From Candidatus Calditenuis fumarioli (lineage in GTDB: Archaea; Thermoproteota; Nitrososphaeria_A; Caldarchaeales; Calditenuaceae): DNA of 64,000 bases. Both the position numbers and the translations under genes were made by a program. A model generated the notes under the pieces. It made no database searches, was not told the DNA's origin, and saw only the letters and a list, made by a program, of their open reading frames with translations. Shown here in pieces: positions 27,474 to 54,105 of the stretch. The stretch lies in contig JANVYR010000002.1 of NCBI GenBank assembly GCA_030059665.1, positions 160,001-224,000 on the forward strand, in the 5' to 3' direction. Position 1 is the first letter of the stretch, and the number at the start of each line of letters is the position of its first letter.

Positions 27474-27776
27474 CTACGGGGACGATCGGATCGCCAGTCC
27501 TCCGGCTATCGCGGGGAGCAGCAGTATCCGGTCGTTCTCCCGGACCCTCGCCTCGAGCCCTCCCAGCTCGTTCACGTTCCGGTCGTTGAGGAAGACGTTG
27601 ACGTGCCTCCTGACCCTCCCCTGCTCGTCGAGGAGCTGCGTCCTCAGCTGGGGATACCTCTCCACGAGGGCCCTGATCGCGTCTCCCACCGTCTCCGCCT
27701 CCAGCGACACCTTGTCGGCGTTGCCCACGTAGGGCCTCAGCGGCGCTGGGATGTAGACCTCGACCTTCTGCTTCAA
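27474..27776 (-). CDS. MoaD/ThiS/SAMP-like beta-grasp protein with a 7-aa extension after GG
   Basis: V.VYIPAPLR...TVGDAIRALVERYPQL...VNVFLN...DRILLLPAIAGG followed by LAIRSSP*. Confidence 0.88.
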   Translation of the reverse strand: MKQKVEVYIPAPLRPYVGNADKVSLEAETVGDAIRALVERYPQLRTQLLDEQGRVRRHVNVFLNDRNVNELGGLEARVRENDRILLLPAIAGGLAIRSSP

Positions 27777-27969
27777 TCCCTCATTGACGGGCCGGCCGCT
27801 TGATCATAACCCTAAGCGTCACGTCCGAGGCTTGTGCCTGCGCTGCTGGTGGACCTTCGGCCCGGTCACATACTACCCTGGTATTACGGACTGTCGGCTT
27901 GACCGGTTCGGTCCGCAAACCCTTTACGTGGAGGTGGTTGACAAATTTGTCTAACGCGGAGGCGGGCGG

Positions 27970-28401
27970 ATGGAGCGGAGTTCCCTCGCGATCCAGCGGC
28001 TTCAGGAGGCGCAGCAGGTCCACGCGGACCGGGACCCGGTGCTGCTCTATTTGGCCAGGAGGGGGGCGCTGACGGAGCGGCAGCTCCAGGTGCTGCTGGC
28101 GGAGATGGACCCGGCGAACAGGGGGAAGAAGATGTCGGAGCGCGCGGCGAAACTCGGCGTCACGAAGGGGACCTACGCCAAGGTGTTGCAGCAGGCCCTG
28201 AGAAACGTGACGCAGAGCGTCTTCACCGTCCTCCTGATCAGCTACCTCGGTCTGGCGGGCGAGGAGGGCTGCAGCTGGCTCGTCGAGGTGGGTCAGCTCC
28301 TGAGGGAGGGGAGGTTCGAAGAGGCCGCAGAGGTGCTCGATGGCGTGCAACGGAGCCTCAGGAAGGCCCTTCGGGACCCCGGTTCCACCGCTTCTCCCTG
28401 A
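27970..28401 (+). CDS. Putative HTH DNA-binding protein
   Basis: LTERQLQVL...ERAAKLGVTKGTYAKVLQQA, a sigma70-r4/LuxR-like HTH. Confidence 0.65.
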   Translation: MERSSLAIQRLQEAQQVHADRDPVLLYLARRGALTERQLQVLLAEMDPANRGKKMSERAAKLGVTKGTYAKVLQQALRNVTQSVFTVLLISYLGLAGEEGCSWLVEVGQLLREGRFEEAAEVLDGVQRSLRKALRDPGSTASP

Positions 28402-28732
28402 ACGCCGCCGCGAAGACTGCAGCCAAGGCTATCATCCCCCCGTGGGCCGCCCTGAAGGCAAGGTCTCTCGAGGCGTCCAAGACGGCTCCAGACATCCTGT
28501 ATCCGACTAGAATCAGTAGAATCATTGCTAGAACGTGACCGAACTTGCCCTTCCAAATCATTAGAATCGAGGCGAGAAATCCTGCGAGAAACAGGAAGTT
28601 TGAAACGGCGAGGGTGGTCTGCCCTTCTAATAGCGTTCTAATCCCTTGGAATCCGTATAGAATCACGTTGAGCGCGCCGAGAGCGGTGGAAGCGGCCGGG
28701 ATTCTAATTCCCACTGAGCGGTTGCGCGCCAT
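28358..28732 (-). CDS. Small membrane protein (~4 TM)
   Basis: ATG at 28732 followed by four hydrophobic segments. Confidence 0.5.
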   Translation of the reverse strand: MARNRSVGIRIPAASTALGALNVILYGFQGIRTLLEGQTTLAVSNFLFLAGFLASILMIWKGKFGHVLAMILLILVGYRMSGAVLDASRDLAFRAAHGGMIALAAVFAAAFREKRWNRGPEGPS

Positions 28733-28912
28733 TCTTCCCCAGCTGCACCTACTCGGTAGGACGTAGAAATATACGCTATCTTCAGCCACGACCCGAATGG
28801 CCAACCCTTTGCGGACCTCGTCTGCGGGTTGAGGTTCCGGGGTCTGGAACGGGCTTCCACTTCCTGTGCAAAGGGCACGCTTTATCGACGGCGCAGATGT
28901 CGACCTGGTGGG

Positions 28913-29581: not shown

Positions 29582-30031
29582 TCATCCCCTGCTGACCGCG
29601 AGGATCGCCACCTTGTCGTTGGCGCACGACAGCGAGATCGTCCCCGCTGAGTAGGAACGGCTCGGGTCGAACGCTCCCCACACGACGGAGAAGAGCCTGT
29701 GGTCCACCTCCACTGAACCGTCGCTGCTCCGCATCAGCTTGACCACGGTGAAGTTCACAGCTATTCCACGAGGTGCCACAGAGGCAATGATGCCCAGCGC
29801 TTCATCCGGTGATGTGTACTCTTCTCTGCAGATGAGCTCGTCGAGGTCGCCCCTCTCGTTGAGGGCCCCCAGCATTTTGTTGGCAATCTCCTCCAGGTCT
29901 CCCCTGTGCTCGGAGGTCGAGGCCGTCTTCAGCGAGACTATCTGGATGTACAGCATCAGCCCGATCACTATTATCGAGGCCGCAAGTATCGCCTCGACGG
30001 TCCACGCTATCCCGGCCCTGCGCCTCCTCAC
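29582..30031 (-). CDS. Pilin-like protein with class III signal peptide
   Basis: MRRRRAG|IAWTVEAILAASIIVIGLMLY; the GTG start overlaps the upstream stop. Confidence 0.65.
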   Translation of the reverse strand: MRRRRAGIAWTVEAILAASIIVIGLMLYIQIVSLKTASTSEHRGDLEEIANKMLGALNERGDLDELICREEYTSPDEALGIIASVAPRGIAVNFTVVKLMRSSDGSVEVDHRLFSVVWGAFDPSRSYSAGTISLSCANDKVAILAVSRG

Positions 30032-30825
30032 ATCGCCCCACCCGACCAGGCCCAGACCTCGATCGTTATCGAGACGCCGTTCTCCATGATCGTGGAGTCT
30101 GAGACGTAGACCGCATCGCTCGGCACCCTGACGCTCGACGGATCGACGGATCTGCCCTTGACGAAGGCCAGCACCGCCTCTGGATACGCAGACGGGACGA
30201 CGACGTATGAGCCGCCATCGGTGTAGAAAACGATCGGCGACTCGTGTGTGAAGACGCTCGTCAGCGCACCGGGTTCTATTGTGTCGCTGTACGTGAAGGA
30301 GCACACCTTAAGCTGAGCGTTCGCCCTGATGGTTCCATCGCTCTCGATTTTCACGAGGTTCGGATCCGGCCTCATCCCGGTGATTCCGACGCCGTACCTG
30401 GAGACCGCAACGCCCTTCCCCGGACCAGTGGGGCAGGCGAAGACCTGCGAGGGGAAGGACGGCGATGCACCGGCTTGGGAGATGGCGATACGCTGGGGGA
30501 AACTGATCCTCGCCACGAAGTCGACCCGGAACCCCGTTAGGTCCATCGCAGGCCGACCGACGTAGCTCGGGTTCAGCTCGAGGAGGTTCTTGGACGACCT
30601 CGAGATGTAGCCCTTCAGGAAGTTGGTGACGGCCCTGGCCTCTGCCCTCACCATCGCGTCCTCCGTGTAGCTCAGGTACATCGATCCGCCGCTCAGCGCG
30701 AAGACCACCACGACCCCGACCGCAAGGGCGAAGACGCCCGCAGCGATCGCGGCGTCGACGACCGCCTCCAACGAGGGACGACCAGAGTGCTGGGCTAAAA
30801 GCGTTGTTTCCGGGACGATCCTCAA
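30028..30825 (-). CDS. Pilin-like/secreted protein
   Basis: ...QHSG|RPSLEAVVDAAIAAGVFALAVGVVVVF, similar to the G-Q-x-S-x-E class III motif. Confidence 0.5.
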   Translation of the reverse strand: MRIVPETTLLAQHSGRPSLEAVVDAAIAAGVFALAVGVVVVFALSGGSMYLSYTEDAMVRAEARAVTNFLKGYISRSSKNLLELNPSYVGRPAMDLTGFRVDFVARISFPQRIAISQAGASPSFPSQVFACPTGPGKGVAVSRYGVGITGMRPDPNLVKIESDGTIRANAQLKVCSFTYSDTIEPGALTSVFTHESPIVFYTDGGSYVVVPSAYPEAVLAFVKGRSVDPSSVRVPSDAVYVSDSTIMENGVSITIEVWAWSGGAM

Positions 30826-30879: not shown

Positions 30880-31179
30880 ATGGAGGAGCTGCTGAGGCGG
30901 ATCAAGGTCGAGATCGTGGGCAATTACAGGAACTTCGTCCCGAGCCTCGGCGTCACGACAGACGGCACGTGGGAGATCCAGATCCTGGACAAGTTCGAGA
31001 GCTTCATGGGGCCGCTCGAGTGCCCCATCGACAGGGAGGAGGTTAAGCTGGAGGAGGCCGTTCTCTGTCCCATCTGCATGACGCCCTACCACCTGGACTG
31101 CGCCAGACTGCTCGCCAGCAGGAGGGAGAAGTGCTGGAAGTGCGACAAGTTCGAGAGGTTCGATCTGCTGGTGACGTGA
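30880..31179 (+). CDS. Small RING-like zinc-finger protein (C4HC3/Prok-RING type), candidate E3
   Basis: C-x2-D-x11-C-x2-C-x4-H-x2-C-x10-C-x2-C (CPID…CPICMTPYHLDC…CWKC). Confidence 0.7.
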   Translation: MEELLRRIKVEIVGNYRNFVPSLGVTTDGTWEIQILDKFESFMGPLECPIDREEVKLEEAVLCPICMTPYHLDCARLLASRREKCWKCDKFERFDLLVT

Positions 31180-31180: not shown

Positions 31181-32023
31181 GTGGAGCCCGCGGAGACGAG
31201 GAAGGTTCTGCTCACACTGGTGACCGATCCACGACGGTTCGGCAGCTCACTCTACTTCAACCCCGACGTGCTCGGCTTCAGGCTCGGCACGGATTCGTGG
31301 ACGGCCCTCGAGGCGCTCGTCTCGCTGGAGGACGCGGGGATCCTGAAGCTCTCGGCCCCACCGGAGCTGGAGCTCCTGTATCAGGTCGAGCTGACCAAGG
31401 TGCGCGTCGCCAACTTCCTCGAATTGAAGGGTTACCAGGAGATCACCTCCGACTTCAAGAGGGTCTGGCTTCTGGGGAGGGTGCTGAAGCTAGAGTCGCC
31501 TCAGCAGCTCGGTCTCCGTCTAACGGACTACTCTCCGAGGCTCTCCGCCCTTTCGGGGAACCTGACTAAGATGTTGAAGCTCTTCGAGAGCAAGTCGCTG
31601 GTCAGCAAGGAGGTCTACATGAGGGTCGCGTCCTCGGTGATGCGCGAGACGGCCTCTGCCGCGAGGGACGCGAAGGAGATACTGTCGGAGCTGAGCGACT
31701 TGGTCCGCACGATATCCCAGCTGATATCCAGGCTCAGGGAGGCGCGATCGTCCATCGAGGAGACGTCCGCCAAGCTGGGTATCAAGCTGGAGGAGAACGA
31801 GAGCCTGATCAGGGCCTACCGCGAATCGGAGCGCGAGCTGCTGGAGCTCCTCGGGCTCGTCAAGTCCAAGCTGCTCGAATCCTTCCCCAACTGGAGCGCC
31901 GTCCTTACCTCGTACGACAAGCTCAGGAGCGAGTTCGGTGCGACAGGGCAAGATTTCATCTCGGCGCTGGAGACCATGAAGTCCATAAACGACAAATTCG
32001 TGCTGGTCACGCAGATCGGTTGA
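31181..32023 (+). CDS. Hypothetical protein: wHTH-like N-terminus plus long coiled coil
   Basis: LGFRLG…ALEALVSLEDAGIL, then heptad-rich helices; translationally coupled to the RING gene. Confidence 0.7.
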   Translation: MEPAETRKVLLTLVTDPRRFGSSLYFNPDVLGFRLGTDSWTALEALVSLEDAGILKLSAPPELELLYQVELTKVRVANFLELKGYQEITSDFKRVWLLGRVLKLESPQQLGLRLTDYSPRLSALSGNLTKMLKLFESKSLVSKEVYMRVASSVMRETASAARDAKEILSELSDLVRTISQLISRLREARSSIEETSAKLGIKLEENESLIRAYRESERELLELLGLVKSKLLESFPNWSAVLTSYDKLRSEFGATGQDFISALETMKSINDKFVLVTQIG

Positions 32024-33092
32024 TCTGGTCCAGCAACCTCTTCAGCAGCTTGATCTCGTCGCTTATCTGGCCCAGCAGGTCCACGGCCTTGTTCGTCCGG
32101 ACCTCCATCGCGTCGAGCAGCGCCTTCTCGACCCGCTGACCCCGCGACCTTATCCCCCTGATCGCGTCCAGCTGCTCCCTGAGCTGCGCTATCCCGGCCT
32201 CGATCACCCTCAGGTAACCTTCCAGGTCGCCACCGGAACCAACGCCGAACTTCCGCAGCAACTCGTTGTAGAGGTACTCGTACTCCTCCTTCGAGATCTC
32301 GCCCAGGTTAAGCCTGGTCCTGAGGAGCTCTATCTCCACCTCGACGAACGGTGGCAGCGTCACGGCCTCGTCCTGCTGGAAGTACTTGCCCAGGGCCTGA
32401 ACGATCTCATCCAGGCGCTCCGTGACCTCGGCCTTCGTGGCCTCGAGTTGCTTCGGATCTAGGTCGCCGATGGTGGTCCGTAGGAAGTCCTCCTCCAACC
32501 GCTCGCGGAGGTGCCTGAGACCGCTCAGCATCTCAGACCAGATGCCTCCCCCTCCACCCTCTATCTGATCGATCGTCGCCTCTATCTCCTGAAGCCCCCT
32601 CACCACCTCGTTCACGAGCTTCTGGTCCTGCTCCTTTGATGAGGTTAGGTTCAGCAGCGAGGTCACCAGCTGAGACCTCCTCCTGATGAGCCCGCCGAGG
32701 ATTATCGGGGACGGAGGAAGGTCGTTAAGGTTCACGGACTCGAGGCCGAGGGCGAGCTCGACAGCGGCCCTCCTGAGGCTTTCGTACTCGGTCTCGGTCA
32801 TCCTCCCGGCGAGGAACCTGAAATCGATGGTCCTGATCAGCTGGATGAGCTTGGACCTCAGCGCCGGGTCGTTCGGGACGGACGCGATCGATATCAGTCC
32901 CGTTGCCTGGAGGTTCAGAAGCCGCTCGATGACGCGCTCCTCAGTGGTTTGCAGGCTCGCGGCCAGATCGGACACGTTCACGCTGACCCTCCCCGACCTC
33001 CTCGGCAATTCGGCCAGGTAGCGCACCAGCGCCATGTCCTCGGCTGTGAGGTGCAACTCCCACGCACTTGGCTTGCCATGGTTATTAAGCAT
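32007..33092 (-). CDS. wHTH + coiled-coil protein with SHOCT/CdvA-like motifs
   Basis: N-terminal DLAASL…RLLNLQATGLI; repeated motifs AGRMTETEY, IGDLDPKQL and LGEISKEEY. The true start is probably at 33036-33057. Confidence 0.65.
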   Translation of the reverse strand: MLNNHGKPSAWELHLTAEDMALVRYLAELPRRSGRVSVNVSDLAASLQTTEERVIERLLNLQATGLISIASVPNDPALRSKLIQLIRTIDFRFLAGRMTETEYESLRRAAVELALGLESVNLNDLPPSPIILGGLIRRRSQLVTSLLNLTSSKEQDQKLVNEVVRGLQEIEATIDQIEGGGGGIWSEMLSGLRHLRERLEEDFLRTTIGDLDPKQLEATKAEVTERLDEIVQALGKYFQQDEAVTLPPFVEVEIELLRTRLNLGEISKEEYEYLYNELLRKFGVGSGGDLEGYLRVIEAGIAQLREQLDAIRGIRSRGQRVEKALLDAMEVRTNKAVDLLGQISDEIKLLKRLLDQINRSA

Positions 33093-33230: not shown

Positions 33231-34049
33231 GTGATCATAACCGTGAACGAGCTGACCACGAGAAGGAGCGTGAAGCTAGAGGTCGAGCCGGGACACACCG
33301 TGCGTGTGGTGGTCGAGGAGGTTATGAAGGCCCTCAAGATACCGCCGACAACGACGTACCGGCTCGTGCTCGGCGGCAAGGAGATCGGCCCTGAGCTCTT
33401 CGACAAGACGCTCGGCGAGCTGGGCATCTCGGACGGCGCCATCATGGACCTGGTACCGAGGCCGGTGGGTGGAGCGATGCTGCCGCAGGACAAGCTGCTG
33501 AAGAGGCTCGAGCGGGAGGAGCAGGAGATGAGGCAGCAGGGGTACGAGTTCGTCCGGGAGGAGGTCTGGAGGCAGATGAGCTTCCCGATGGTTTACAGCG
33601 CCGGGCTCGAGACCCTCGACGTAGCGCTGAGGTACGTCGTCACCTTTCAGGCACGCGGTTTCGTGCTGACCAAGAAGGGCGTGGAGGAGCAGCTCACCCA
33701 CACCGCCAGCATCTACGTGCTCCGGTACTACCCATACCCCGATCCGAAGCACGGTGCGCCGATGAGGATCTTCTGGGAGAGCAACATCTTCCATCCGAAC
33801 ATCTGCCCCGGGCCCAGATACGGCGGAAACGGGCTCGTCTGCTGGAAGATGATCAGGGAGTGGGGGAAGAACTTCTCGCTGTCGACGCTGGTGAGGGGCC
33901 TCCAGCTTCTCGTTGAGAACCCGAACCCCGAGGACCCGCTCAGCAAGATCCCCATCTGCATGCAAGCGACCGCCTTCTTCAAGGAGAACCCGCACCTCAT
34001 GGGATCCATGCAGGCTCCTGCCGGGGGCAGGCCGCGCGTCGTCGAATAG
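33231..34049 (+). CDS. Ubiquitin-like (aa 1-81, ends GG) fused to an E2/UBC conjugating domain
   Basis: Beta-grasp pattern ending KTLGELGISDGAIMDLVPRPVGG. The E2 motifs follow: YPY..P, IFHPNI, GLVCW (C204), WG…SLSTLV and NPNPEDPL. Confidence 0.88.
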   Translation: MIITVNELTTRRSVKLEVEPGHTVRVVVEEVMKALKIPPTTTYRLVLGGKEIGPELFDKTLGELGISDGAIMDLVPRPVGGAMLPQDKLLKRLEREEQEMRQQGYEFVREEVWRQMSFPMVYSAGLETLDVALRYVVTFQARGFVLTKKGVEEQLTHTASIYVLRYYPYPDPKHGAPMRIFWESNIFHPNICPGPRYGGNGLVCWKMIREWGKNFSLSTLVRGLQLLVENPNPEDPLSKIPICMQATAFFKENPHLMGSMQAPAGGRPRVVE

Positions 34050-34059: not shown

Positions 34060-34530
34060 ATGTGCGCCGAAGAGAGGCCGGTTTACCCAGTTTACATCGA
34101 CCTAGAGGTTTTGCTGGACGTGACGAAGCACGCACTGGAGGAGCTGCCGCGTGAGGTGATTGGGTTTCTGCTGGGGAGGGCCTACACGTGGAACGGCGAG
34201 ACGTATGTCCACGTGACCGGTTCGATAAGAGGTCGGTCCATCGCCTCCGAGACCTCAGTCGCCTTCGCTCCCGATTCACTGGCCGAGGTGGCCGAGTCTC
34301 TCAGGCGAGATCATCCCGACAAGGAGATCGTCGGATGGTACCACTCGCACCCGGGATACGGATGCTTTCTGTCACCGACCGACATAACGTCGCACAAATC
34401 TTGCTTCGCGATGCCGCATCACGTCGCGCTGGTGGTGGATCCGGTGAGGAAGGAGGCAGCCTTCTTTCGCGTCTCGGAGGGATTCGGCTACGAGGGCGTG
34501 AGGTCGGCCATCGTGAGGAGGCGGGTGTGA
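34060..34530 (+). CDS. JAB/MPN+ metalloprotease, Rpn11-like
   Basis: EVIGFLLG, VGWYHSHPGYGCFLSPTD and ALVVDP. Confidence 0.92.
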   Translation: MCAEERPVYPVYIDLEVLLDVTKHALEELPREVIGFLLGRAYTWNGETYVHVTGSIRGRSIASETSVAFAPDSLAEVAESLRRDHPDKEIVGWYHSHPGYGCFLSPTDITSHKSCFAMPHHVALVVDPVRKEAAFFRVSEGFGYEGVRSAIVRRRV

Positions 34531-34531: not shown

Positions 34532-34705
34532 ATGGTCAGGGTGTTGGACGTCACGGAGCCGCAGCCCGAGCAGAGGCCTCCCCCTGACATAACGGACGAG
34601 TACGAGGTGATATCGCGCGATGAGGAGGGAGACGGTTACGACATCTCGGAGATCGTGGACATGTTGAAAGGCATGGAAAGCGGCGAGGGGGACGCTCAGC
34701 CCTGA
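34532..34705 (+). CDS. Small acidic protein (57 aa, below the ORF-track cutoff)
   Basis: ATG 1 nt after the JAB stop; MVRVLDVTEPQPEQRPPPDITDEYEVISRDEEGDGYDISEIVDMLKGMESGEGDAQP, with 17 D/E residues. Confidence 0.6.
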   Translation: MVRVLDVTEPQPEQRPPPDITDEYEVISRDEEGDGYDISEIVDMLKGMESGEGDAQP

Positions 34706-35430
34706 ATCCTCTCCAGAACCTCCCTTCTCAGCACCGCTTCGCTCTCCTCGATCGCCCTCATGACGCTCTGGACCCTCGAGGCCGGCTTGATGCCGCCCAG
34801 CGCGCGCTTTGATAACTCGATCTCCTGTTGCATCAGCAAAGCCACCTCCAGTATTATGTCCGAGAGGCCGGTCGAACCGCCCTCGTATTCCCTCATGAGG
34901 ATGGCTAGGTCGTCACCGACGTACGAGGAGAGCCAGATCCACCTGTCCAGACCCTCATAGGCTCTCCTGGCGTTCTGCAGGTCCTCGATCTCCAGCTGCG
35001 CTAGCCTCAGAAGGTGAAGCCCCTCCTCCTTCTTGCCCAGCTGGTGTAGTATGCCGGCGGCAGCTGCGAGCCTCAGCAGCAACTTCAGCGATGCGCCCGC
35101 CTCCACGACGTTCCTCGGCATCCTCTTGCTCAGGAGACGGTACGACATGTCGGCGGCGCTCAAGGTGAGCAGGAATTCCGCCGCCAGGCGATTCAGTTCC
35201 TCCAACACCTCCTCGTTTCCCGACTTTTCAGCCGCAACGCGGTTCAGCACCAGCGAGAGTGACGTCCTGAGCTGTTCCAGCCTCGAGACCTTCTCCAGCA
35301 GGCTGCCGAGCGACGCCTCACCGAGTAAGGGCGAATCGAAGACCTGAAGGACTACGGGGGGACGCAGGCTGTACTCCGCGACGCTCACGACCCTAGGGTT
35401 TTTCCCCCGCCTCCTGCCTCTCCTGACCAT
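34696..35430 (-). CDS. Hypothetical all-helical protein
   Basis: 244-aa ORF with good codon bias, Leu/Glu-rich amphipathic helices. Confidence 0.7.
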   Translation of the reverse strand: MVRRGRRRGKNPRVVSVAEYSLRPPVVLQVFDSPLLGEASLGSLLEKVSRLEQLRTSLSLVLNRVAAEKSGNEEVLEELNRLAAEFLLTLSAADMSYRLLSKRMPRNVVEAGASLKLLLRLAAAAGILHQLGKKEEGLHLLRLAQLEIEDLQNARRAYEGLDRWIWLSSYVGDDLAILMREYEGGSTGLSDIILEVALLMQQEIELSKRALGGIKPASRVQSVMRAIEESEAVLRREVLERIQG

Positions 35431-45971: not shown

Positions 45972-46793
45972 TTGAGGCGTAGCGAATCCGGTCTGAGCGT
46001 GGCCGTACAGACTGCAGCGATGATAGTGATAACTGTGGCCATAGCAGGGGCCATCGTAGCCCTGTGGAGGCCATGGGAAACGGGAAGTCAGGTCCAAGCC
46101 GGAGACATATCCTACGTCATGCAGAACGTCCATGAGGCTGTCCTCAGGCGAGAGGGTTCGGTCCAGCCACATTTCTCGCTCACGGTTTACCCGCTCAAGG
46201 AGACCCACAAAGTGGAAATCGAATGGAACGGCAATAGAATGCCTGTTATGGTGTCAGTAAGCACTATAGAATATCATGGCGACAAGATGAGACTCCCAGG
46301 CGTGTACTTCCTCGACAAGGGGAGCGTCGACGTTCTCGGGACCTACATCGCGGACAGGAAAAGGAACTACACGGTCAATGGGGTGGATACGGTATCCTAT
46401 GTCGAGTACGATGAAAAGGGGATGAAATACGTCGTCAAGGCCCTGCCATACGTTAACGTGGCCGTTGACAGAGTGTACCACGACGTTGTCGTTAACGTCA
46501 TGATAAGGTTCGTGGTGCTCGCGCCCTATCCGCTGAACGCGATGGAGTTCCCAGACTCGGTTAAGCGAGGATACACCATCGGAGCGGGGCAGATGATCAC
46601 CCTCAGGATGAACAACACCTACAGGTTCTACATGCAGCAGCCCGAGTCGGTGGGCGGAGGGACCCTCAGGCTCTACTTCGATGGCGAGCCAATCCTCAAC
46701 GCGCAGAACGAGGCCCTGGAGGTCAGGACTACAGAGCACACCATAGTGAGGGTGTTCGTGGACATGGTCGTGCTGAACGTATGGGGGAGGTAG
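45972..46793 (+). CDS. Pilin-like protein
   Basis: MRRSESG|LSVAVQTAAMIVITVAIAGAIVALW. Confidence 0.7.
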   Translation: MRRSESGLSVAVQTAAMIVITVAIAGAIVALWRPWETGSQVQAGDISYVMQNVHEAVLRREGSVQPHFSLTVYPLKETHKVEIEWNGNRMPVMVSVSTIEYHGDKMRLPGVYFLDKGSVDVLGTYIADRKRNYTVNGVDTVSYVEYDEKGMKYVVKALPYVNVAVDRVYHDVVVNVMIRFVVLAPYPLNAMEFPDSVKRGYTIGAGQMITLRMNNTYRFYMQQPESVGGGTLRLYFDGEPILNAQNEALEVRTTEHTIVRVFVDMVVLNVWGR

Positions 46794-46794: not shown

Positions 46795-47271
46795 TTGGCC
46801 TCGACCTACGTATACATCGTCACGATAGGCGTTCTGATGCTGATCGGCATGACTTCCGCATACCTCCTCATGCAGCAGGTCGGATCGATGACGTACGTCG
46901 GCCAGAGGAACGCCCTCGCGGTAGCGGCCTCGCACGTCCTTTCGGGGATGTGGAGCGCGGTGGAGGAGGCCAAACTCGTTCCCGGCGGGGGAGTGGAGTA
47001 CAAGGCCGTCTCGGTGGGGTTCTCGTTCAGGGCTGAGGTGGGGAACAGCCCGAGGACGGGCCAGCTCTCCCTCTGCGTCACGGCGTTCGGCATCGCCTAT
47101 GAGAGGCCTCTCCCCACCATTCCCGGTGTCACGTACAGGCCCTCGGGTTCGGGAGGTGAGGTGGTTACGATCAGGGCCTCCGTATCGGAAGGGTCGATCG
47201 AAATAACGCTTGGAAACATGGACCAGAACAGTCAGTTCACAGAGGGCCAGCCAACGGAATGCTTCAAATGA
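46795..47271 (+). CDS. Pilin-like/secreted protein
   Basis: N-terminal hydrophobic helix without a basic leader, followed by a small beta domain. Confidence 0.5.
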   Translation: MASTYVYIVTIGVLMLIGMTSAYLLMQQVGSMTYVGQRNALAVAASHVLSGMWSAVEEAKLVPGGGVEYKAVSVGFSFRAEVGNSPRTGQLSLCVTAFGIAYERPLPTIPGVTYRPSGSGGEVVTIRASVSEGSIEITLGNMDQNSQFTEGQPTECFK

Positions 47272-48746
47272 ACAGGACGCGCTGTTTTCTGCTTCTGCTG
47301 TCGTTGCTTATTTTGCAGCATATTGTCTATTCAACTGCGAACGCTTTAGAAGAGTCCCCCAACAACGGCCATGGGGTCAACTACGATTACCTGATCGAGT
47401 TCGGCCGGGACTGTGTGGCCGAGGTCAGGGTCCTGGTGAGGACATGGGACAGCGAGGCCAGGGCATGGATGCTCCTCCCGAGGCTCGAGAAGGGTTTCTC
47501 CACCAACGCGTCGTTGACAAAGGTGGAGGGTGCTAACCTGGAAGGCAGGAGGCTGGCGCTTTACGTGAACGTTTCGTTCCACCTTCCTCGTGGGACTACG
47601 GCCGCATTCAACTACTCGTTACCCCACGTCTGTCTGGTCCACCGCGGAAAGGCCGTCTTCCTCTCGCCGTTGATGGTGTTCTCACCCGGAGGCAGCGGAA
47701 CGGTATCCGTTAACGTGAACTGGCCCGGGTCGTCCTTCGCAGGAGCCGATGCCGCGCTCTCATCTGTCAGGAGATCGGATGACGGGTTCGGCGTCACCAG
47801 GAGGCTGCCGCTGCTGTCGGGAAGGCTCTCGTTCGTCTTCTCGGTCCCAGAAGAGGAGCTGAGGGAATACGTGAACTGCTCCCTGACGTTCGTCCTGCCC
47901 GAGAGGTACAGCTGGATCGCCGAGAGGTTGATGGCGTTCAATTCGAAGGTGGACGGGAAGCTCGCGGAGCTTTTCCAGCGAAAACCCTCGAGGTTGACGG
48001 TTTCGTTCTTCCTGCCCGACAGATACGACGAGGGGCCAGAGGGGTTCGTAACTCCGCCGAACGGCGACAGCACAGGAAGGATCTCGCTCAACCTCTACCT
48101 GTTGAGGATGGTCGACGGCATGCTCGAGGTCACCTTCCTCCACGAGCTCATCCACCAGTACCTCTTCGCGAACGGCGTCGGGGCCGGCGCCACCTGGCTC
48201 CACGAGGGTCTAGCGACCTACCTCTCGGTGAGGCTGGCGATGGGTACGGGGCTGGAGGCACCCGCGTACGTCCGTGAGCTGTTCGACTGGGAAAACGCGA
48301 GCCTTCAGGAACTCCGAGGCCTTCTCGGCTGGAGGCCGGGTGAGGAGAGGGGCAGGAGGTGGTACGCGATGGCCTACAGGGCCGTGGAGCTGCTCTTCTC
48401 GGCCGACAGCGACGGGATGAGGAAGGCCGTTTCCTCGCTCGGGGACGCAACGGTGAGGACGCCGGAGGACGCCGCGGTGCACGTCTTCGATCACCTCAAC
48501 GCAGAGGGGAGGAGTTTAATGATTGAGATGGGGCTGGTGAGCGCACAGGATCTCGCTCAGGAGATCGGCTCCGAGCCCATGACACCACGTAACGAGACGC
48601 CCGGGAGCGCTGTGATGAACGGCACCGCGCAGACGGTTCAGGGCATCCCACAAACCGTTACGCACGAGCACCTCGTTCTCGTGTTAGCGACCGTCCTGAC
48701 CGTATCGGTGATAGCGCTGATCCTGATCGACGTCAGGCGGACTTAG
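47259..48746 (+). CDS. Membrane-anchored gluzincin (MA-type) metallopeptidase
   Basis: Signal peptide, HELIHQY followed by WLHEGLA, C-terminal TM. Confidence 0.75.
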   Translation: MLQMNRTRCFLLLLSLLILQHIVYSTANALEESPNNGHGVNYDYLIEFGRDCVAEVRVLVRTWDSEARAWMLLPRLEKGFSTNASLTKVEGANLEGRRLALYVNVSFHLPRGTTAAFNYSLPHVCLVHRGKAVFLSPLMVFSPGGSGTVSVNVNWPGSSFAGADAALSSVRRSDDGFGVTRRLPLLSGRLSFVFSVPEEELREYVNCSLTFVLPERYSWIAERLMAFNSKVDGKLAELFQRKPSRLTVSFFLPDRYDEGPEGFVTPPNGDSTGRISLNLYLLRMVDGMLEVTFLHELIHQYLFANGVGAGATWLHEGLATYLSVRLAMGTGLEAPAYVRELFDWENASLQELRGLLGWRPGEERGRRWYAMAYRAVELLFSADSDGMRKAVSSLGDATVRTPEDAAVHVFDHLNAEGRSLMIEMGLVSAQDLAQEIGSEPMTPRNETPGSAVMNGTAQTVQGIPQTVTHEHLVLVLATVLTVSVIALILIDVRRT

Positions 48747-49576
48747 CCCTGCTCCTCGATCTTCGTGGTGTCGTATCCGAGCTCCTTCAGCCTCGTCACG
48801 TACTCCGATCTCAGCCTCTCGTACACCTCCTTCTTGACGCGACCGTCCTTGTACGCCAGCTCGAGGCTCGAGAGGAAGTTAAGGTATCTCGTGACCATGA
48901 CGTTCCGGCCCTCATCGATGACCTCCTTGGAAACCGCCTCGCCGCCAACCCTCGCCTCAACCCCTGCGGTCCCCTCCTCGACCTCAGCAGCTCCTTCATG
49001 GGGCTCAGTCACGGGGACGTATGTGGCCCTCTCCCACGTCGCACGCACCTTCATGCGTAGGACCTGGAAGCCCTCGCTCGGCCGCGTGAGGATCAGCTTC
49101 AACGTGAACGGAGATATCCTGCCCGACCACATCAACAGGCCGAGGAGTACCAGTGACGTGGAACCGATCGCAGCGATCGGGTAGTAGCCGGGAAGGAAAA
49201 CATATGCCGCAGAGACGGCCGCGATCATCGCTGCCAGCGTCGCGATCGTCTTCCGGTCGAGCGTGAGGTTCACGATGCCCCTGCTTGCCAGAAAGGTCGT
49301 CACCAGCAGCGCGATCACCAGACCTGCGACCCCTGCGGCCACGAAGGAGATCGCCGTGAAGAACAACGCGAAGACCGTGTAGAAGATCAGAACGTCAGGT
49401 CCCTTAGCGAGCGAGACGAAGGCGGCCAGTATCGCCACCTCGATGACGATCAAGACCAGCCCCAGGACACCGCCGATCGTATAGGCAGCACCGACCGCGG
49501 TCAAGAGGAAGGAGACCATGGCTATGTCCGACCTCAGTGCGTTCTTGATCCTCGCTCCTCCCGTGATCTCCGCCAT
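48743..49576 (-). CDS. Multi-pass membrane protein with C-terminal SHOCT-like domain
   Basis: About six TM helices; tail LELAYKDGRVKKEVYERLRSEY. Confidence 0.7.
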   Translation of the reverse strand: MAEITGGARIKNALRSDIAMVSFLLTAVGAAYTIGGVLGLVLIVIEVAILAAFVSLAKGPDVLIFYTVFALFFTAISFVAAGVAGLVIALLVTTFLASRGIVNLTLDRKTIATLAAMIAAVSAAYVFLPGYYPIAAIGSTSLVLLGLLMWSGRISPFTLKLILTRPSEGFQVLRMKVRATWERATYVPVTEPHEGAAEVEEGTAGVEARVGGEAVSKEVIDEGRNVMVTRYLNFLSSLELAYKDGRVKKEVYERLRSEYVTRLKELGYDTTKIEEQG

Positions 49577-49738
49577 CGAATGCGAAAGAACTCGCCAAAA
49601 TAAAATTCTTTTTCTGAAAACAGTCCAAATCTGCCCATGCGGACAGCTCATCCCTCTCGTATGAGCGTCGAGGATCGAACCGTCCGTGGCGGGCGCAACA
49701 GGGGAACGTTTTTGAAGGGCTCAGGGGCATGAGGTTCG

Positions 49739-50425
49739 ATGGAGGGAGCGGTCAGAATAGCAGCGTCGGCCGTGATCGCCTTCATTGCGGCACTGGGGCT
49801 CGTCATCGCTTTCCCGGGGATCGTTCCCGGAACGATGAGGGTGACCACTGTTCAGGTTCCCGTGGTGGTAACGCAGACGCTCAGGGTGAACGTCACCCAT
49901 ACCGCCTTCCAGACCGTCCTGAAGGACACCGCAGGACCTGTGTGGGAGCTGGTCTTCGTCGAGTTGCCCCGCGAGCCACGAGAAGGCTCGATAACGGTGT
50001 ACAACGCGACGCTCGGCCTCGGACGCAGCGGTATAGCGGCGGCCATCGTGGTCAAGGCCCCTGACGGATACCAGTTCGCGCCGACGGTGAACGGGTTCGT
50101 GTTCAGGCTTGAGACCAACCTACCGGTAAAGGCTCTGGTGCTGTACTCCGACGTCTCGGTCCCCGTTGTGCCGGGGCTCGACAGGAGCAACTACAGGACG
50201 ATGCTCGCCGAGAAGGCCTTCTCGCCCACCGCGCTCCTGCCGTACCAGAACCCGAGGAGGGCCGACGCTTCACCGGGCGCCTTCACGCTCCAGCGCGAGC
50301 GGGGCAACTTCCAGCCGTATTCGTGGCTCGCGATCTGGCCGCTTTCGGTCTACTTCCACGGCATCGAGGGCCACGAGACGAAGGTGCGGGTCGTGCTGAC
50401 CTACAGCCTGGTGGAGGCGAGGTGA
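49739..50425 (+). CDS. Secreted/membrane-anchored hypothetical protein
   Basis: N-terminal hydrophobic helix and a beta-rich body; lies directly upstream of E1. Confidence 0.7.
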   Translation: MEGAVRIAASAVIAFIAALGLVIAFPGIVPGTMRVTTVQVPVVVTQTLRVNVTHTAFQTVLKDTAGPVWELVFVELPREPREGSITVYNATLGLGRSGIAAAIVVKAPDGYQFAPTVNGFVFRLETNLPVKALVLYSDVSVPVVPGLDRSNYRTMLAEKAFSPTALLPYQNPRRADASPGAFTLQRERGNFQPYSWLAIWPLSVYFHGIEGHETKVRVVLTYSLVEAR

Positions 50426-50426: not shown

Positions 50427-51278
50427 GTGTCAATGTCATCCGGCACAGGTCTGAGGGGGCTCCCCGTCCTGCAGGTCTACAGGATGGACGACGACGTCTA
50501 CGAGAGGCAGCGTCGTATCTGGAACCAGGACAGAATAGGCGCGATGCGGGTCCTGGTGGGAGGTGCGGGCGCGCTCGGGAACGAGATCGTCAAGAACCTC
50601 GTTCAGATCGGGGTCAAGCGCGTTTACGTAATCGACTTCGACCGTGTGGTCGCGTCCAACCTTAACAGGTGCCTCTTCTTCCGGAGGAGCGATGCCCTCA
50701 GGAGGAGCAAAAAGGTGGAGGTGCTCGCGAGAAGGGCGAGTCAGATCAACAGCGACGTCGAGGTGGTCCCGATCCACGGCGACATCAGGGACCTGAGTGA
50801 CGACGTCATCAGGGACGTGGACATCGCGCTAGGTGCCTTCGACAACTTCCACGCAAGGCTGGTCCTGAACCTGCGGTGCTACGAGAGGCAGGTCCCCCTC
50901 ATCGACGGTGGCATCGAGGGACTGCTCGGGACGGTGCAGGTGGTGGTGCCTCCCTTCACGCCCTGCATCGAGTGCGGCATCACCGACATGGACCTCCAGC
51001 ACCTTTGGGAGAGGTTCTCGTGCGGCGGCGAGGCCACCGGGCTGGAGGGGCCGAAAATCCCGTACGTTCCGATGACGGGGGCGGTCGTCGCAGGCATTCA
51101 GGTCGCCGAGTGCGTCAAGGTCCACCTCGGGCTGGAGCGCTTCAAACGGGAGGGGAACTGGAGCGACAGCGTTGGCGAGCCCATGGCGGGCAAATCCCTG
51201 CTGATAGACCTCAGAACGGGTTCGTTCTACGCGTATGACCTCCAGCGGAGGAGCGACTGCAACGTCTGCTCTCTTTGA
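50427..51278 (+). CDS. ThiF/E1-like ubiquitin-activating enzyme (UBA3-like)
   Basis: YERQ, GAGALGNE, DFD.V..SNLNR, CIEC and C-terminal CNVC zinc motifs, and a candidate catalytic Cys in RFSC. Confidence 0.9.
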   Translation: MSMSSGTGLRGLPVLQVYRMDDDVYERQRRIWNQDRIGAMRVLVGGAGALGNEIVKNLVQIGVKRVYVIDFDRVVASNLNRCLFFRRSDALRRSKKVEVLARRASQINSDVEVVPIHGDIRDLSDDVIRDVDIALGAFDNFHARLVLNLRCYERQVPLIDGGIEGLLGTVQVVVPPFTPCIECGITDMDLQHLWERFSCGGEATGLEGPKIPYVPMTGAVVAGIQVAECVKVHLGLERFKREGNWSDSVGEPMAGKSLLIDLRTGSFYAYDLQRRSDCNVCSL

Positions 51279-51317
51279 ACGGAGTAAGGTTATATGATCC
51301 AGTAAGGCACCACAATC

Positions 51318-53576
51318 ATGGGAAGAGACCCGCAAAGCACGAGCGAGATCGTTGCACGGAGCGTTCCGATCTTCCTCCTCCTGGTCCTCCTATTGACGCA
51401 GTCGGCACAGGTTCTGGTGGCGCACGCTCAACAGGACTCGTCACCTCCCATCAGTTTGCCGCTCAGGGCACCGCTTCCGGTGAACGTGATCACCGTTGGA
51501 CTCAGGCCGGAGGTGCTGGGGCTGAGGACGATGGCGGAGCTTCAGCAGATACTCAGCACGCACGTCAGGTCAAAGGCCGCTTCCTACGTCGGCTTCAGCC
51601 TCGACGACCCGATCCTGATCGCCGAGTTCGACGTCCATCTCCAAGTTCTGGAGGCCCCCCAGCGGTTCGTGGCCGAGTTCGCCAACGATTTGTCCTTGGT
51701 CACATATGATCCGGCGAGGCTCCCGCTGGAGGCCAAGCAGGAGAACCAGAGGTACAGGGACTTCGTCAGGTCGGCTTACGGCGGCACCGTGGCTGGCAGC
51801 CTGACGTTCACCCTGACCGACATGGAGGCTGTCGTTCAGCTCATGGCCTACTACACCGAGAAGTACATACCCGCGGTCCTGAACGACTACAACGTCTACC
51901 TCCTCTGCGGTAACTCTTTCTTCGATGGAAAGGTCCCGGTGTACTTCACGGTGGGCTACACGCCAGAGAGGCAGGTGCCCAACGCGGTGGTGGGCCTCAA
52001 CCTGTACGGAGGCATGTGGACCGGCCGGCACGTGGTGATCGACGTCTGCGCGGTGCCTAACCCTTACGGCAACTTCGCGCCGAAGGGCCAGCAAGAGGTC
52101 CTCGAGTACCTGCCGGTATGGGTCTCCAACGACCCTGAATTCAGGATCGGGATGGTGGTGAAGTACGTGGACGAGGTCATCGACAACCTCTTCGTCAAGT
52201 CCCTGCTCTACCTGCCCCGGTATCAGGTGACCTACCTCTTCGACGTCGTGGTGATCGACCTGACCACCTCCGGTGGAGGGCCCTCCTTCTTGGTGAACAA
52301 CTTCTCCCCTGAGCTCTTCGAGTACGCCATGAGGCAGCTGGCGCCCTACAACTACTACACGAGCAGGTACAGCTACTACCACATAAGCGATGTGCCGCAG
52401 ATGAGGCAGGTCATCCGCTCCTCTAGGGGATACCAGGTAATAGACGTGGAAGCGGCGCTCGACACAGCCCAGCGTCTCGGGATAATCAAGGAGACCGTGA
52501 AGGGTGTCGCTTACACGCCGATACTGATCTTCGTCTCGGACTCGGACATTTTCCCTGATGCGCCAGGCGTGCTCGGCATAGCATGGGCTGACAGGGAGGA
52601 CCCCAGATATCCACGGGGGGTGGTGGTCGGGGCCGTGTTCAGCGCAATTCAGCGCGAGGGCCTCACGTTCACCGTCATCCACGAGGCAGGGCACACGCTT
52701 GGGCTGGCACACCCGTTCCAGGACCTCGACGAGTCGCAGATGGCCCCCGGCAGGTCCGGAAACCTCAGGCCGACGTTCGTGAACAGGTGGATCTACGCCT
52801 ACGTCGACTCCGCGATGACCTACGCTAATGTGCTTCAGGTCACCGATTACCGGGACCTCTTCACATACAAGTACCCGATGAGGACCTTCTTCAGCACCTT
52901 CGACCTGGACGCGCTGGACAGGACCACGATCTCCCTCCTGCTGTACTACTACCTGCTCTACAGACAGGAGGCTCTTGCGGAGCTCAACAAGCTCAACAGG
53001 CCGCTTGAGGCCTTCGAGAAGGGGAAGGAGCTTCTAAAGCTGGCTGACCAGGCCGCCGTCGATGCGGTCAGGCTATTCGAGCAGCATATGTACTTCGATC
53101 GGCTGGAGTTCGAGGGACTGGGATCGCAGCTGGTCTCCTCGTTCGATCACGCCTGGCTCGCATACGTCTCGGCTTACACCCTGTACAACCTGATCGTGGG
53201 CGTTCAGGACGCAGCGGCCTTTTACGAGCCCCAGATCGAGGAGCTGCAGCGCACGGTTGCGAATCTGAACGGCAGGATCAACGATCTGAGCTCCCAGCTC
53301 GAGGACTCGAGGAGGCAGACGGAGCAGCTGAGGACGGCGCTGGAATCGGAACGCCAGCAGAGGAATGCCATCCAGGCGGAGCTTGACCGGACGAAGGGCG
53401 AGCTGCAGCGGGCACAGCAGGATCTCGCGGCGAAGGAGAGGGAACTCTCCGACGCCAACGCCAGGGCAACGACCTACCTCTACGGCATGGTGGGGGTCGC
53501 CGTCGGCGCAGCGGTCGCGGTCGCGTCCGTGGTCGTCCTCAGCAGCAGGAGAAGGCCGAAACCGACGGTAGCCTGA
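51318..53576 (+). CDS. Secreted metzincin protease with coiled-coil stalk and C-terminal TM
   Basis: HEAGHTLGLAH, Met-turn SAMTY, signal peptide (AHA|Q), long heptad stalk and TM. Confidence 0.8.
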   Translation: MGRDPQSTSEIVARSVPIFLLLVLLLTQSAQVLVAHAQQDSSPPISLPLRAPLPVNVITVGLRPEVLGLRTMAELQQILSTHVRSKAASYVGFSLDDPILIAEFDVHLQVLEAPQRFVAEFANDLSLVTYDPARLPLEAKQENQRYRDFVRSAYGGTVAGSLTFTLTDMEAVVQLMAYYTEKYIPAVLNDYNVYLLCGNSFFDGKVPVYFTVGYTPERQVPNAVVGLNLYGGMWTGRHVVIDVCAVPNPYGNFAPKGQQEVLEYLPVWVSNDPEFRIGMVVKYVDEVIDNLFVKSLLYLPRYQVTYLFDVVVIDLTTSGGGPSFLVNNFSPELFEYAMRQLAPYNYYTSRYSYYHISDVPQMRQVIRSSRGYQVIDVEAALDTAQRLGIIKETVKGVAYTPILIFVSDSDIFPDAPGVLGIAWADREDPRYPRGVVVGAVFSAIQREGLTFTVIHEAGHTLGLAHPFQDLDESQMAPGRSGNLRPTFVNRWIYAYVDSAMTYANVLQVTDYRDLFTYKYPMRTFFSTFDLDALDRTTISLLLYYYLLYRQEALAELNKLNRPLEAFEKGKELLKLADQAAVDAVRLFEQHMYFDRLEFEGLGSQLVSSFDHAWLAYVSAYTLYNLIVGVQDAAAFYEPQIEELQRTVANLNGRINDLSSQLEDSRRQTEQLRTALESERQQRNAIQAELDRTKGELQRAQQDLAAKERELSDANARATTYLYGMVGVAVGAAVAVASVVVLSSRRRPKPTVA

Positions 53577-53685
53577 GAGCGATACTAACCTGCTTCTATT
53601 CTTTTTGCAGTGTTGGTCGGTGTTGCTGCGATCGGCCCGAATTTTTCGTATATGTTTAATTATTGGACAATTGAAATGAGTTCGC

Positions 53686-54105
53686 ATGGGGAAGGGAAGC
53701 AGAAGGAACGAAGGGCTGAGCGAGGCCGTGACGACGATTCTGCTCGTCGTGATCGGGATAGCGATGGCGTTGATGATATGGCAGTTCTTTACGCCGCGAC
53801 CCTCTGAGGAGCTCAGGATAGGGCCCATAGACGTCTCCGGCGGGACGGTCATCTTCACCGCCCAGAACGTGGGCAGCGTGGACGCCGAGATCGTCGGCGT
53901 GGCCTGCTATCCGCCGGGGAGCGCACCGCCTTCGACCGGGGGCGCAGTAACGCCGCTCGGCGGTGCGGACACAAAGCTGCAGCAGGGCGAGTCGAGCAGT
54001 TTCTCGGGCAGCTGTGCGGGTTCCGAGCCTGGCAAACCGATCAACGTGCTGGTCTTCACGAAGAACAAGGCCTACGGACCGTTCACGGTCATAGTCAGGA
54101 GCTGA
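53686..54105 (+). CDS. Archaeal type IV pilin, likely the major pilin
   Basis: SRRNEG|LSEAVTTILLVVIGIAMALMIW canonical class III peptide; AT-rich promoter-like region at ~53640-53680. Confidence 0.85.
   Translation: MGKGSRRNEGLSEAVTTILLVVIGIAMALMIWQFFTPRPSEELRIGPIDVSGGTVIFTAQNVGSVDAEIVGVACYPPGSAPPSTGGAVTPLGGADTKLQQGESSSFSGSCAGSEPGKPINVLVFTKNKAYGPFTVIVRS

Follow-up and report, generated by a model that had tools for sequence, protein, structure and literature searches.

Gene content of the locus

We analysed a 64-kb stretch of the genome of Candidatus Calditenuis fumarioli, an archaeon of the order Caldarchaeales, in which genes matching a ubiquitin-type conjugation cascade are interleaved with those of an archaeal type IV pilus. 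This whole stretch is referred to as the window. The host genome comprises 1.57 Mb and is 91% complete, and its nearest public relatives are hot-spring metagenome-assembled genomes (MAGs) labelled Candidatus Calditenuaceae or Caldarchaeales. The ubiquitin-pilus block contains ~22 genes and lies between housekeeping genes, with GatD and an aminotransferase on the left flank and pirin, LigT, a P-type ATPase, and an M1 peptidase on the right (Table 1). A preliminary description of this DNA had named the ubiquitin-type and pilus features, and all of them were found where it had placed them. Families were assigned by searches against Pfam, NCBIfam, and the PDB, and structures were evaluated with AlphaFold2 (AF2) models and Foldseek. 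Throughout, L-numbers are labels of fetched loci or contigs, G-numbers of genomes, and P-numbers of proteins.

The central protein of the ubiquitin-type part is a fusion of a ubiquitin-like (Ubl) domain with a ubiquitin-conjugating (E2) domain. It scores 30.4 bits against the UQ_con model of Pfam (cut-off 27), its E2 profile matches solved E2s at 1e-12 to 1e-14, and H188-P189-N190 together with C204 are invariant across 20 relatives. In the AF2 model of the fusion (predicted local distance difference test, pLDDT, 83.5), the N-terminal domain adopts a beta-grasp fold, which Foldseek matched to ubiquitin at template modelling (TM) scores of 0.8-0.88 (31-35% identity to human ubiquitin), with the Caldiarchaeum ubiquitin matched as well. 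The sequence RPVGG stands exactly at the Ubl/E2 junction, which is conserved, and the fusion itself is kept in at least 10 independent assemblies, ruling out an assembly artefact. Relatives further away encode Ubl and E2 by separate, overlapping genes, and the unfused Ubls of the same clade carry 2-15 further residues behind the GG at their C-terminus; fusions with a ..P.GG junction are also seen in several further cluster representatives of the E2 family. Because the single Ubl domain ends with GG exactly at the E2 junction, the arrangement implies a precursor that would be cleaved, not a lasting fusion.

In the relatives compared, the gene directly downstream of E2 always encodes a JAB protein. 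Its motif HSHPx7SxxD (HSHPGYGCFLSPTD) conforms to the JAMM/Rpn11 pattern E...HxHx7Sx2D, and its best PDB match is the Rpn11 of Caldiarchaeum (6FJV, 4e-18), followed by eukaryotic Rpn11 and CSN5. The activating enzyme (E1) is best matched in the PDB by UBA1, UBA7, UBA6, UBA3, and SAE2, ahead of MoeB/ThiF; it has a recognizable adenylation domain, two CxxC motifs, and a cysteine within RFSCGG. The RING-like protein is a putative ubiquitin ligase (E3). Seven of the eight expected zinc ligands (C48, C63, C66, H71, C74, C85, C88) are invariant in 10 relatives, with the eighth, at position 51, being Asp in the genus and Cys in distant relatives. Its signature, C..CxxC-x4-H-xxC..CxxC, is also found in proteins near Asgard E1-E2-JAB operons. 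Structure prediction for a complex of E2 domain and RING protein reached a score of 0.18 versus a mark of 0.32, which speaks neither for nor against an interaction.

Several further proteins accompany these enzymes. The coiled-coil protein cc280, for which Pfam returned no family match, is the constant neighbour of RING, both in congeners and on metagenome contigs. No usable match was obtained for cc361 in a protein atlas search, but counterparts with the same winged helix-turn-helix (wHTH) N-terminus and coiled coil adjoin Ubl, E2, and JAB in six distant loci (L141, L167, L169, L172, L174, and L182), and in L045 the counterpart is fused to RING. Since winged-helix/coiled-coil proteins are also present in loci devoid of pilus genes, and given the RING fusion in L045, we assign them to the predicted ubiquitin module and not to the pilus. 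The 57-residue open reading frame behind JAB had been missed in an open reading frame list with a 60-residue minimum. Its PPP..EYEV motif, often PPxPPEY, follows JAB in every clade of the module: the next gene carries it in congeners, in L141, L162, L164, L165, and L174, and in a sister clade without pilus genes (L045, L081, L083, and L218), frequently as an exact PPxY (PPEY or PPDY). Outside the genus, the PPxPPEY-type motif belongs to a membrane protein with one transmembrane pass, of which it forms the cytoplasmic N-terminus, and we read the small protein as a putative conserved adaptor or substrate of the module. No Pfam family was matched by cc244. Finally, two membrane proteins are encoded to the left of E1: p228, which is paired with E1 in every congener arrangement, and p302, which resembles membrane proteins with helical tails of the pilus-less sister-clade loci. 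The RING-like protein, Ubl-E2, JAB, and E1 had been proposed to form a genuine conjugation set, and the family and fold matches support this.

On the pilus side, the ATPase and platform genes overlap and find their best NCBIfam matches in BasE/FlaI and BasF/UpsF, respectively. The machine had been described as type IV pilus/Tad-like; these matches uphold the pilus system, of the archaeal FlaI/FlaJ type, but not a specific relationship to Tad. The likely major subunit, p139, has a class III leader (..RRNEG/LSEAV), and its AF2 model (pLDDT 80.5) consists of an N-terminal helix (13-35) and a beta-sandwich. The top Foldseek matches are solved archaeal pilus subunits (8FK7, 8TIB, 6NAV, 8Q30, 6W8X, and 6W8U) from Pyrobaculum, Sulfolobus/Saccharolobus, and Haloferax. 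No other protein of the locus is as well conserved (83-85% identity in congeners), and the congeners have its gene between E1 and Ubl-E2. Six further pilin-like proteins were called by sequence alone, from their N-terminal hydrophobic helix. Among them, the one at 29582 probably has its true start near 30049 (RRRRAG/IAWTVEAIL), downstream of the 265-residue pilin-like gene on the same strand, whose orthologues remain in the locus in congeners (51-53% identity) and in L046. In a DNA contig of a different hot-spring sample, 1,391 unrelated letters stand in place of bases 39498-40875 of p518, in its low-GC passenger region, and this passenger resembles a strain-variable cassette. Orthologues of the giant protein are found in congeners (47-49% identity) and in L046, and proteins of 1,030-1,187 residues occupy its position in L172, L174, L182, and L204. 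Of the two surface proteases suggested previously, p752 stands, with its HEAGHxxGxxH motif, weak Reprolysin/Met-zincin matches, and conservation in congeners, but p495 offers just HELIH. A single prepilin peptidase (Peptidase_A24) scored above the cut-off in the genome; it is encoded at contig 2:294141-294479, ~70 kb outside the window.

Two metatranscriptome assemblies contained pieces of 154-544 nt with at most three differing letters, on the Ubl-E2, cc244, ATPase, TadC, and giant genes. These are contigs of RNA libraries, which do not prove transcription and whose uncovered parts carry no meaning, and we take them as a weak hint of expression only.

Table 1. Features of the ubiquitin-pilus locus and of loci used for comparison. 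Positions are those of the window unless another locus is named; the slash in N-termini separates leader and mature part.
Feature	Position	Strand	Characteristics
Ubl-E2 fusion	33231..34049	+	272 aa; Ubl domain 1-81 ending RPVGG, then UBC-type E2 (HPN188-190, Cys204)
Rpn11-like JAMM/JAB metalloprotease	34060..34530	+	Pfam JAB 5e-16
Short eukaryote-like E1	50427..51278	+	283 aa; ThiF 5e-46
C4HC3 RING-like zinc finger, candidate E3	30880..31179	+	99 aa; Prok-RING_1 1.7e-5
Coiled-coil protein cc280	31181..32023	+	280 aa; starts 1 nt past RING gene
Winged-helix and long coiled-coil protein cc361	32007..33092	-	361 aa; weak helix-turn-helix (HTH) matches
PPP..EYE-motif protein	34532..34705	+	57 aa; right after JAB stop; PPP...EYEV motif, then GxGYDIsE
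Helical/coiled-coil protein cc244	34696..35430	-	244 aa; stays beside JAB in all congener arrangements
Membrane protein p302, cytoplasmic helical C-terminus	48743..49651	-	302 aa
Membrane-anchored protein p228	49739..50425	+	228 aa; gene ends 1 nt before E1
FlaI/BasE-type type IV pilus assembly ATPase	35851..37704	+	T2SSE 2e-23; BasE/FlaI 1e-64
FlaJ/TadC-type polytopic platform	37701..39368	+	T2SSF 2.4e-11; BasF/UpsF
Archaeal type IV pilin p139, likely major subunit	53686..54105	+	139 aa; leader ..RRNEG/LSEAVTTILLVVIGIA
Pilin-like protein	29582..30049	-	weak DUF7288 9e-6; N-terminal hydrophobic helix after basic stretch
Pilin-like protein	30028..30825	-	265 aa; N-terminal hydrophobic helix
Pilin-like protein p518	39375..40931	+	518 aa; N-terminal hydrophobic helix, variable low-GC passenger region
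Pilin-like protein p193	40931..41512	+	193 aa; N-terminus SVGQ/ASVTFVVLVV; orthologues in congeners and L046
Giant secreted protein, possible tip adhesin	41509..45957	+	1,482 aa; signal peptide
Pilin-like protein p273	45972..46793	+	273 aa; N-terminus SG/LSVAVQTAAMIV; conserved in congeners and L046
Pilin-like protein p158	46795..47271	+	158 aa; N-terminal hydrophobic helix; conserved in congeners and L046
Secreted, C-terminally anchored protein p495	47259..48746	+	495 aa; HELIH motif; conserved in congeners
Secreted metzincin-like protease p752	51318..53576	+	752 aa; HEAGHTLGLAH; coiled coil, C-terminal anchor
ThiS-family gene	27474..27776	-	Pfam 2e-13
Left-hand block	24503-29296		966-aa CarboxypepD_reg-repeat surface protein, ThiS, HTH protein, membrane protein, wHTH protein; on other contigs in congeners
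Window	contig 2:160001-224000		64 kb, ~62% GC
Pilin-ATPase-TadC loci without ubiquitin genes	L214 16481-20000; L216 14428-18385		TadC much more distant, 1e-45
Third ubiquitin-type cluster	L081 / L062, G403 contig 91		membrane protein, Ubl, E1, E2, JAB, PPxY-motif membrane protein, winged-helix/coiled-coil

Evidence for a second ubiquitin-type system

One way in which the preliminary description could have failed is that the locus is simply a rearranged canonical ubiquitin operon. A separate compact operon, Ub-E2-E1, was however identified on another contig (contig 1:98500-100500; L008 4524-6457). It encodes a ubiquitin of 78 aa ending exactly with GG, its last residues being RTVGG, an E2 that scores 92 bits against UQ_con, and an E1 of 394 aa; the 187-aa open reading frame behind the E1 had no Pfam match. 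The genome also contains a further Rpn11-like JAB, far from the canonical operon (contig 1:29766-30092), and a MoeB-like ThiF. An E2 match was obtained in all 59 other Caldarchaeales genomes of the phylum sample, most of them with a separate ubiquitin match, which we take to be the canonical pair, and the fused Ubl-E2 is confined to this genus in that comparison.

The E1 phylogeny, built with a quick method and with support values from the Shimodaira-Hasegawa-like approximate likelihood ratio test (SH-aLRT), unites the E1 of the window with those of pilus-linked metagenome loci and with a Bathyarchaeia/G206 clade (support 91). The Asgard E1s are the sister of this group (86); the canonical E1 of the genome is a distant long branch, far from that of the window. 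Given a separate canonical operon and a distinct E1 lineage, the rearranged-operon explanation is rejected and the window therefore encodes, with high confidence, a real second ubiquitin-type cascade.

Conservation of the ubiquitin-pilus linkage

The gene neighbourhood comparison that the preliminary description had called for was carried out, and it revealed an evolutionarily conserved linkage. In the genus itself, the same ~20 genes stay together in four species genomes and ~10 metagenome contigs, in at least four different orders. The usual congener order is p228 - E1 - pilin (p139) - UblE2 - JAB - cc244 - pilin-like - RING - cc280 - cc361 - ... - ATPase - TadC - p518 - p193 - giant - p273 - p158 - p495 - p302 - p752, from which the window, L158, and L162 deviate. 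Because most congeners keep the run E1-pilin-UblE2-JAB contiguous, the separate positions of E1 and E2 in the window are a local rearrangement of it. ATPase and Ubl-E2 share one contig in four of six congeners; of the remaining two, one (84% complete) is without both and the other (66% complete) has its ATPase at a contig edge.

Outside the genus, pilus-linked ubiquitin genes were found in distant lineages whose E2s are 37-65% identical to that of the window and whose GC content ranges from 26 to 62%. In L046 (E2 65% identical), UblE2-JAB adjoins the giant protein and pilin-like genes, and the 17-kb contig also holds a TadC (P0169) of 55% identity. In L141 (41% identity, GC 0.38), TadC (1e-89) and five pilin-like genes are followed by wHTH-coiled coil, UblE2, and JAB. 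In L174/L175 (44% identity, GC 0.34), Ubl, E2, and JAB are separate genes with pilus genes on both sides, comprising a p139-type pilin, a 1,077-aa secreted protein, and pilin-like genes on one side and four pilin-like genes, TadC (3e-110), and the ATPase on the other. A p139-type pilin lies beside or near the ubiquitin genes in L167, L169, L182, and L183, and a different pilin-like gene directly follows E1 in L172; RING, E1, and winged-helix/coiled-coil genes occur in these loci. The reverse search, starting from TadC, recovered P0172 (38% identity, 4e-113) on L204, where its neighbours are E1, a pilin-like gene, a 1,030-aa protein, a p139-type pilin, an ATPase, and four pilin-like genes.

The E1 of L182 (5998-7014) has an N-terminal extension of ~45 residues with CxxC, at the place where other lineages have a separate RING gene upstream of E1. 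It may be what is left of a RING, or else the start may have been mis-called.

As a control, ~65 more distant E1-E2-JAB loci from Asgard, Thermoplasmata, Micrarchaeota, and Bathyarchaeia, with flanks of up to 10 kb, were put through the same searches, which recovered neither an ATPase nor a TadC nor a p139-type pilin. The ATPases of the ubiquitin-linked loci score 367-470 bits against that of the window, versus ~270 bits for the best from other Caldarchaeales genera, and the ATPase of the window falls in one clade (100/99) with those of L174 and L204, apart from the other ATPases of its genome. Outside the genus, the closest ATPases are those of L206 and L207, whose contigs are too short to reveal a ubiquitin neighbourhood. 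Close and distant relatives of the E2 clade alike thus keep pilus genes beside the ubiquitin genes, and chance adjacency, the other way in which the proposal could have failed, does not account for this. We consider it probable, with good confidence, that the ubiquitin module is conserved in functional coupling with this pilus system.

Genes adjoining the locus

A ThiS gene to the left of the block had been described as a propeptide-bearing small archaeal modifier protein (SAMP) and counted with the cascade. The gene exists and has seven residues after its GG, but it lies outside the cascade. Its orthologues in four congeners (72-77% identity) are encoded on contigs other than that of the ubiquitin-pilus locus and travel with the left neighbours of the window (the 966-aa protein, two small HTH proteins, and a membrane protein). 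They end right after GG, so that the tail is peculiar to this genome, which contains four ThiS-like genes. ThiS was thus rejected as modifier of the cascade, since it belongs to a separate conserved block, as was membership in a SAMP/ThiS-UbaA system, since in the four congeners ThiS is not genetically linked to the locus E1. The 966-aa protein was likewise discarded as a protease, having CarboxypepD_reg/Ig repeats and no catalytic domain.

At the left end of the window there is an open reading frame of 2,470 aa (1274-8686, minus strand). No marks of a mobile element were seen in the window: the flanks are housekeeping genes and no tRNA gene occurs in the 64 kb, although integrases were never specifically searched for.

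Proposed function and alternatives

We lean towards a composite reading in which two modules have become one conserved unit, with the cascade acting on pilus components. The first module would be a second, membrane-associated ubiquitin system, made up of the Ubl-E2 precursor, JAB, the PPP..EYE protein, E1, RING, and the winged-helix/coiled-coil partners. The second would be an archaeal type IV pilus, with its FlaI-type ATPase, FlaJ-type platform, major pilin, four to six minor pilin-like proteins, and the giant protein.

According to this reading, the adjacent JAB probably cuts Ubl-E2 after Gly81 (RPVGG/A), which would release a Gly-Gly-ended Ubl and the E2. We propose this step because of its precedent in Caldiarchaeum, whose Rpn11 removes the pro-peptide of its ubiquitin and cuts a linear Ub-sfGFP fusion (PMC5654768). 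The E1 would then adenylate the Ubl and pass it to Cys204 of the E2, and RING together with the coiled-coil/winged-helix partners would act as E3 or scaffold at the cytoplasmic face of the membrane. The order from E1 to E2 (Cys204) to RING is established knowledge for these families. The targets would be those pilus parts exposed to the cytoplasm, namely the ATPase, platform loops, or prepilin leaders, or else the module's own membrane adaptors; tagging would set assembly or turnover, and JAB would reverse it. This specific target model is put forward tentatively. More doubtful still is the possibility that the ubiquitin-type system is a dedicated working part of the pilus machine, tagging prepilin leaders, mature pilin N-termini, or platform and ATPase. 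If this were true, pilins would be extracted and degraded via Cdc48/proteasome, or their assembly gated, an archaeal pilus lacking a retraction ATPase would gain a ubiquitin-driven turnover, and the first natural, genetically defined substrates of archaeal ubiquitination would be in hand.

Several observations weigh against the composite reading. The RING protein scores 25.1 bits against Prok-RING_1, under the gathering cut-off of 29.1, and the pilus components, as proposed targets, were deduced from gene neighbourhood alone. The broad ATPase clade to which the window belongs includes, in an unresolved polytomy, two other families of the phylum, whose pilin-ATPase-TadC loci (L214 and L216) contain no ubiquitin module within the 15-20 kb fetched on each side. 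Because of these loci, the pilus type can exist without the module; it is older than the coupling and needs no ubiquitin genes, the coupling marking a sub-group, and the two loci are natural controls for what the module adds. Conversely, in Asgard and other archaea the module family stands free of pilus genes, and its sister clade (L045, L081, L083, L218, and L220) is found among membrane-anchored or secreted proteins, again with no pilus genes. What unites this branch of ubiquitin systems, as judged from these neighbourhoods, is a membrane or surface context. A module of the sister clade is the third system in one Calditenuaceae MAG (L081/L062), a congener, with its nearest relatives in Bathyarchaeia, and some Calditenuaceae may thus carry three ubiquitin-type systems. 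Also, the organisms are uncultured and most of the distant examples are single metagenome contigs of unknown taxonomy.

Of the explanations that compete with the composite reading, a proteolytic switch survives best, although we judge it unlikely. In this case, the winged-helix/coiled-coil proteins would be transcription factors or anti-factors of the pilus operon, tagged for the proteasome in place of the machine, and the linkage would reflect expression control, not an effect on the pilus apparatus. The winged-helix N-termini of cc361 and of its counterparts in every lineage are in line with this, as are two further small HTH proteins adjoining the locus and the divergent promoter regions between the winged-helix/coiled-coil genes and the ubiquitin genes. 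However, the fusion to RING in L045 suggests that such a protein belongs to the ligase and is not its substrate, and the same proteins accompany the ubiquitin module in sister-clade loci where there is no pilus operon to control.

It is distinctly unlikely, in our view, that ubiquitin and pilus genes merely move together as one laterally transferred island of surface proteins, with each working alone. The distribution is indeed patchy, being absent from the other genera of the family and present at GC contents from 0.26 to 0.62, and each module exists alone elsewhere. Yet the linkage outlasts at least four rearrangements in one genus and a divergence of E2 down to 37-45% identity, several lineages have the major pilin between E1 and Ubl-E2 or immediately upstream of Ubl, and E1 is translationally coupled to a membrane protein.

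Quality control comparable to endoplasmic-reticulum-associated degradation (ERAD), in which the membrane-associated module would mark stalled or surplus prepilins or the giant protein on the cytoplasmic side for removal by Cdc48/proteasome, seems to us quite improbable. A prepilin exposes just its short leader to the cytoplasm, which speaks against it, even if the module family always lies among membrane-anchored or secreted proteins, pilus or not, and several of its components are membrane proteins with cytoplasmic domains.

The pilus is a common virus receptor in archaea and bacterial Bil systems use the same Ubl-E1-E2-JAB logic, and the p518 passenger (39498-40875) is replaced between strains, but antiviral defence, in which a Bil-like Ubl system beside the pilus would tag incoming or assembling virus proteins, is highly improbable and the least favoured of the functions offered in the preliminary description, because PADLOC returned no match for the E2 (nor for RING and the partner proteins) and weak, generic ones for E1 and JAB, and because the flanks are housekeeping genes; in addition, there is no tRNA in the window and the stable linkage to one ATPase/TadC clade is unlike the pattern of defence islands.

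Relation to known systems

The closest described relative is the operon Ub-E2-E1-srfp(RING)-Rpn11 of Caldiarchaeum subterraneum (PMC3082918), which has been reconstituted (PMC5654768). Both share the ubiquitin fold, a UBC-type E2 with HPN and Cys, an Rpn11-like JAMM (6FJV), a small RING or RING-like protein, and a modifier that needs proteolytic maturation, as predicted for the window. The window differs in that the Caldiarchaeum-type operon is already present elsewhere in the same genome, the E1 of the window is shorter (283 versus 394 aa) and comes from a different clade, Ubl and E2 form one fusion protein, the RING is a C4HC3 finger of the Prok-RING_1 type, extra winged-helix/coiled-coil and PPP..EYE partners are present, and the whole is embedded among pilus genes. 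The JAB-E1-E2 loci of Asgard archaea (Promethearchaeota and relatives) belong to the same families, with E1 matches of 1e-49 to 1e-60 by phmmer, a sister E1 clade, and nearby RING proteins of the same signature; unlike the window, ~50 of these loci have no ATPase, TadC, or p139-type pilin within ~10 kb, and the Asgard Ubl is a separate gene.

In bacteria, Bil (BilABCD) and the Cap2/Cap3 proteins of cyclic-oligonucleotide-based antiphage signalling systems (CBASS) are similar in encoding Ubl (or target), E1, E2, and JAB together, with a JAB that acts on the Gly-Gly end. In contrast to them, the locus has RING and coiled-coil partners, no defence context, and a conserved pilus linkage. In PADLOC, E2 had no matches, E1 reached generic adenylation-domain models only (BilD 2e-4), and the JAB match was weak. 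With models unmatched or generic and no defence-island context, membership in Bil or CBASS was rejected. Bacteria are reported to have polyubiquitin-like proteins that continue into an inactive E2-like domain, in operons with JAB and E1 (cited in PMC11354881). They resemble the window in combining Ubl and E2-like domains in one polypeptide, with JAB and E1 in the operon, but the E2 of the window retains both HPN and the catalytic Cys, and there is a single, truly ubiquitin-like domain with GG at the junction.

Compared with the archaeal type IV pili of Sulfolobus (Aap/Ups and the bindosome, Bas) and Pyrobaculum, the locus has the FlaI-type ATPase, FlaJ-type platform, and pilin fold in common, as well as a prepilin peptidase encoded elsewhere in the genome, whereas its scores are far under the equivalog cut-offs and its ATPase/TadC clade is distinct. 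None of the archaeal pilus loci described so far is known to contain ubiquitin genes, and the words ubiquitin, ThiF, and JAB are absent from a 2016 census of archaeal pili (PMC4858521). Our full-text literature search found no paper linking an archaeal ubiquitin cascade to a pilus locus, in agreement with the preliminary description, which knew of no cascade coupled to a pilus machine; nor did it find a description of a cleavable fusion of true ubiquitin to an active E2 in archaea.

Implications

The substrates of eukaryote-like ubiquitin systems of archaea are an open question in the field, and the reconstitution of the Caldiarchaeum cascade reportedly relied on surrogate substrates only. The conserved linkage provides a short list of candidate substrates and partners, which are thermostable and testable in vitro. 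More generally, one archaeal ubiquitin family, defined by a short E1, E2, JAB, a C4HC3 RING, winged-helix/coiled-coil proteins, and a PPxY-like protein, is consistently encoded with membrane or surface proteins, which bears on the origin of membrane ubiquitin signalling before eukaryotes. For pilus biology, this would be the first ubiquitin-like modification linked to a prokaryotic surface filament, and the conserved embedding across very different archaeal lineages suggests that ubiquitin-like tagging serves the machine that builds it at the cell surface.

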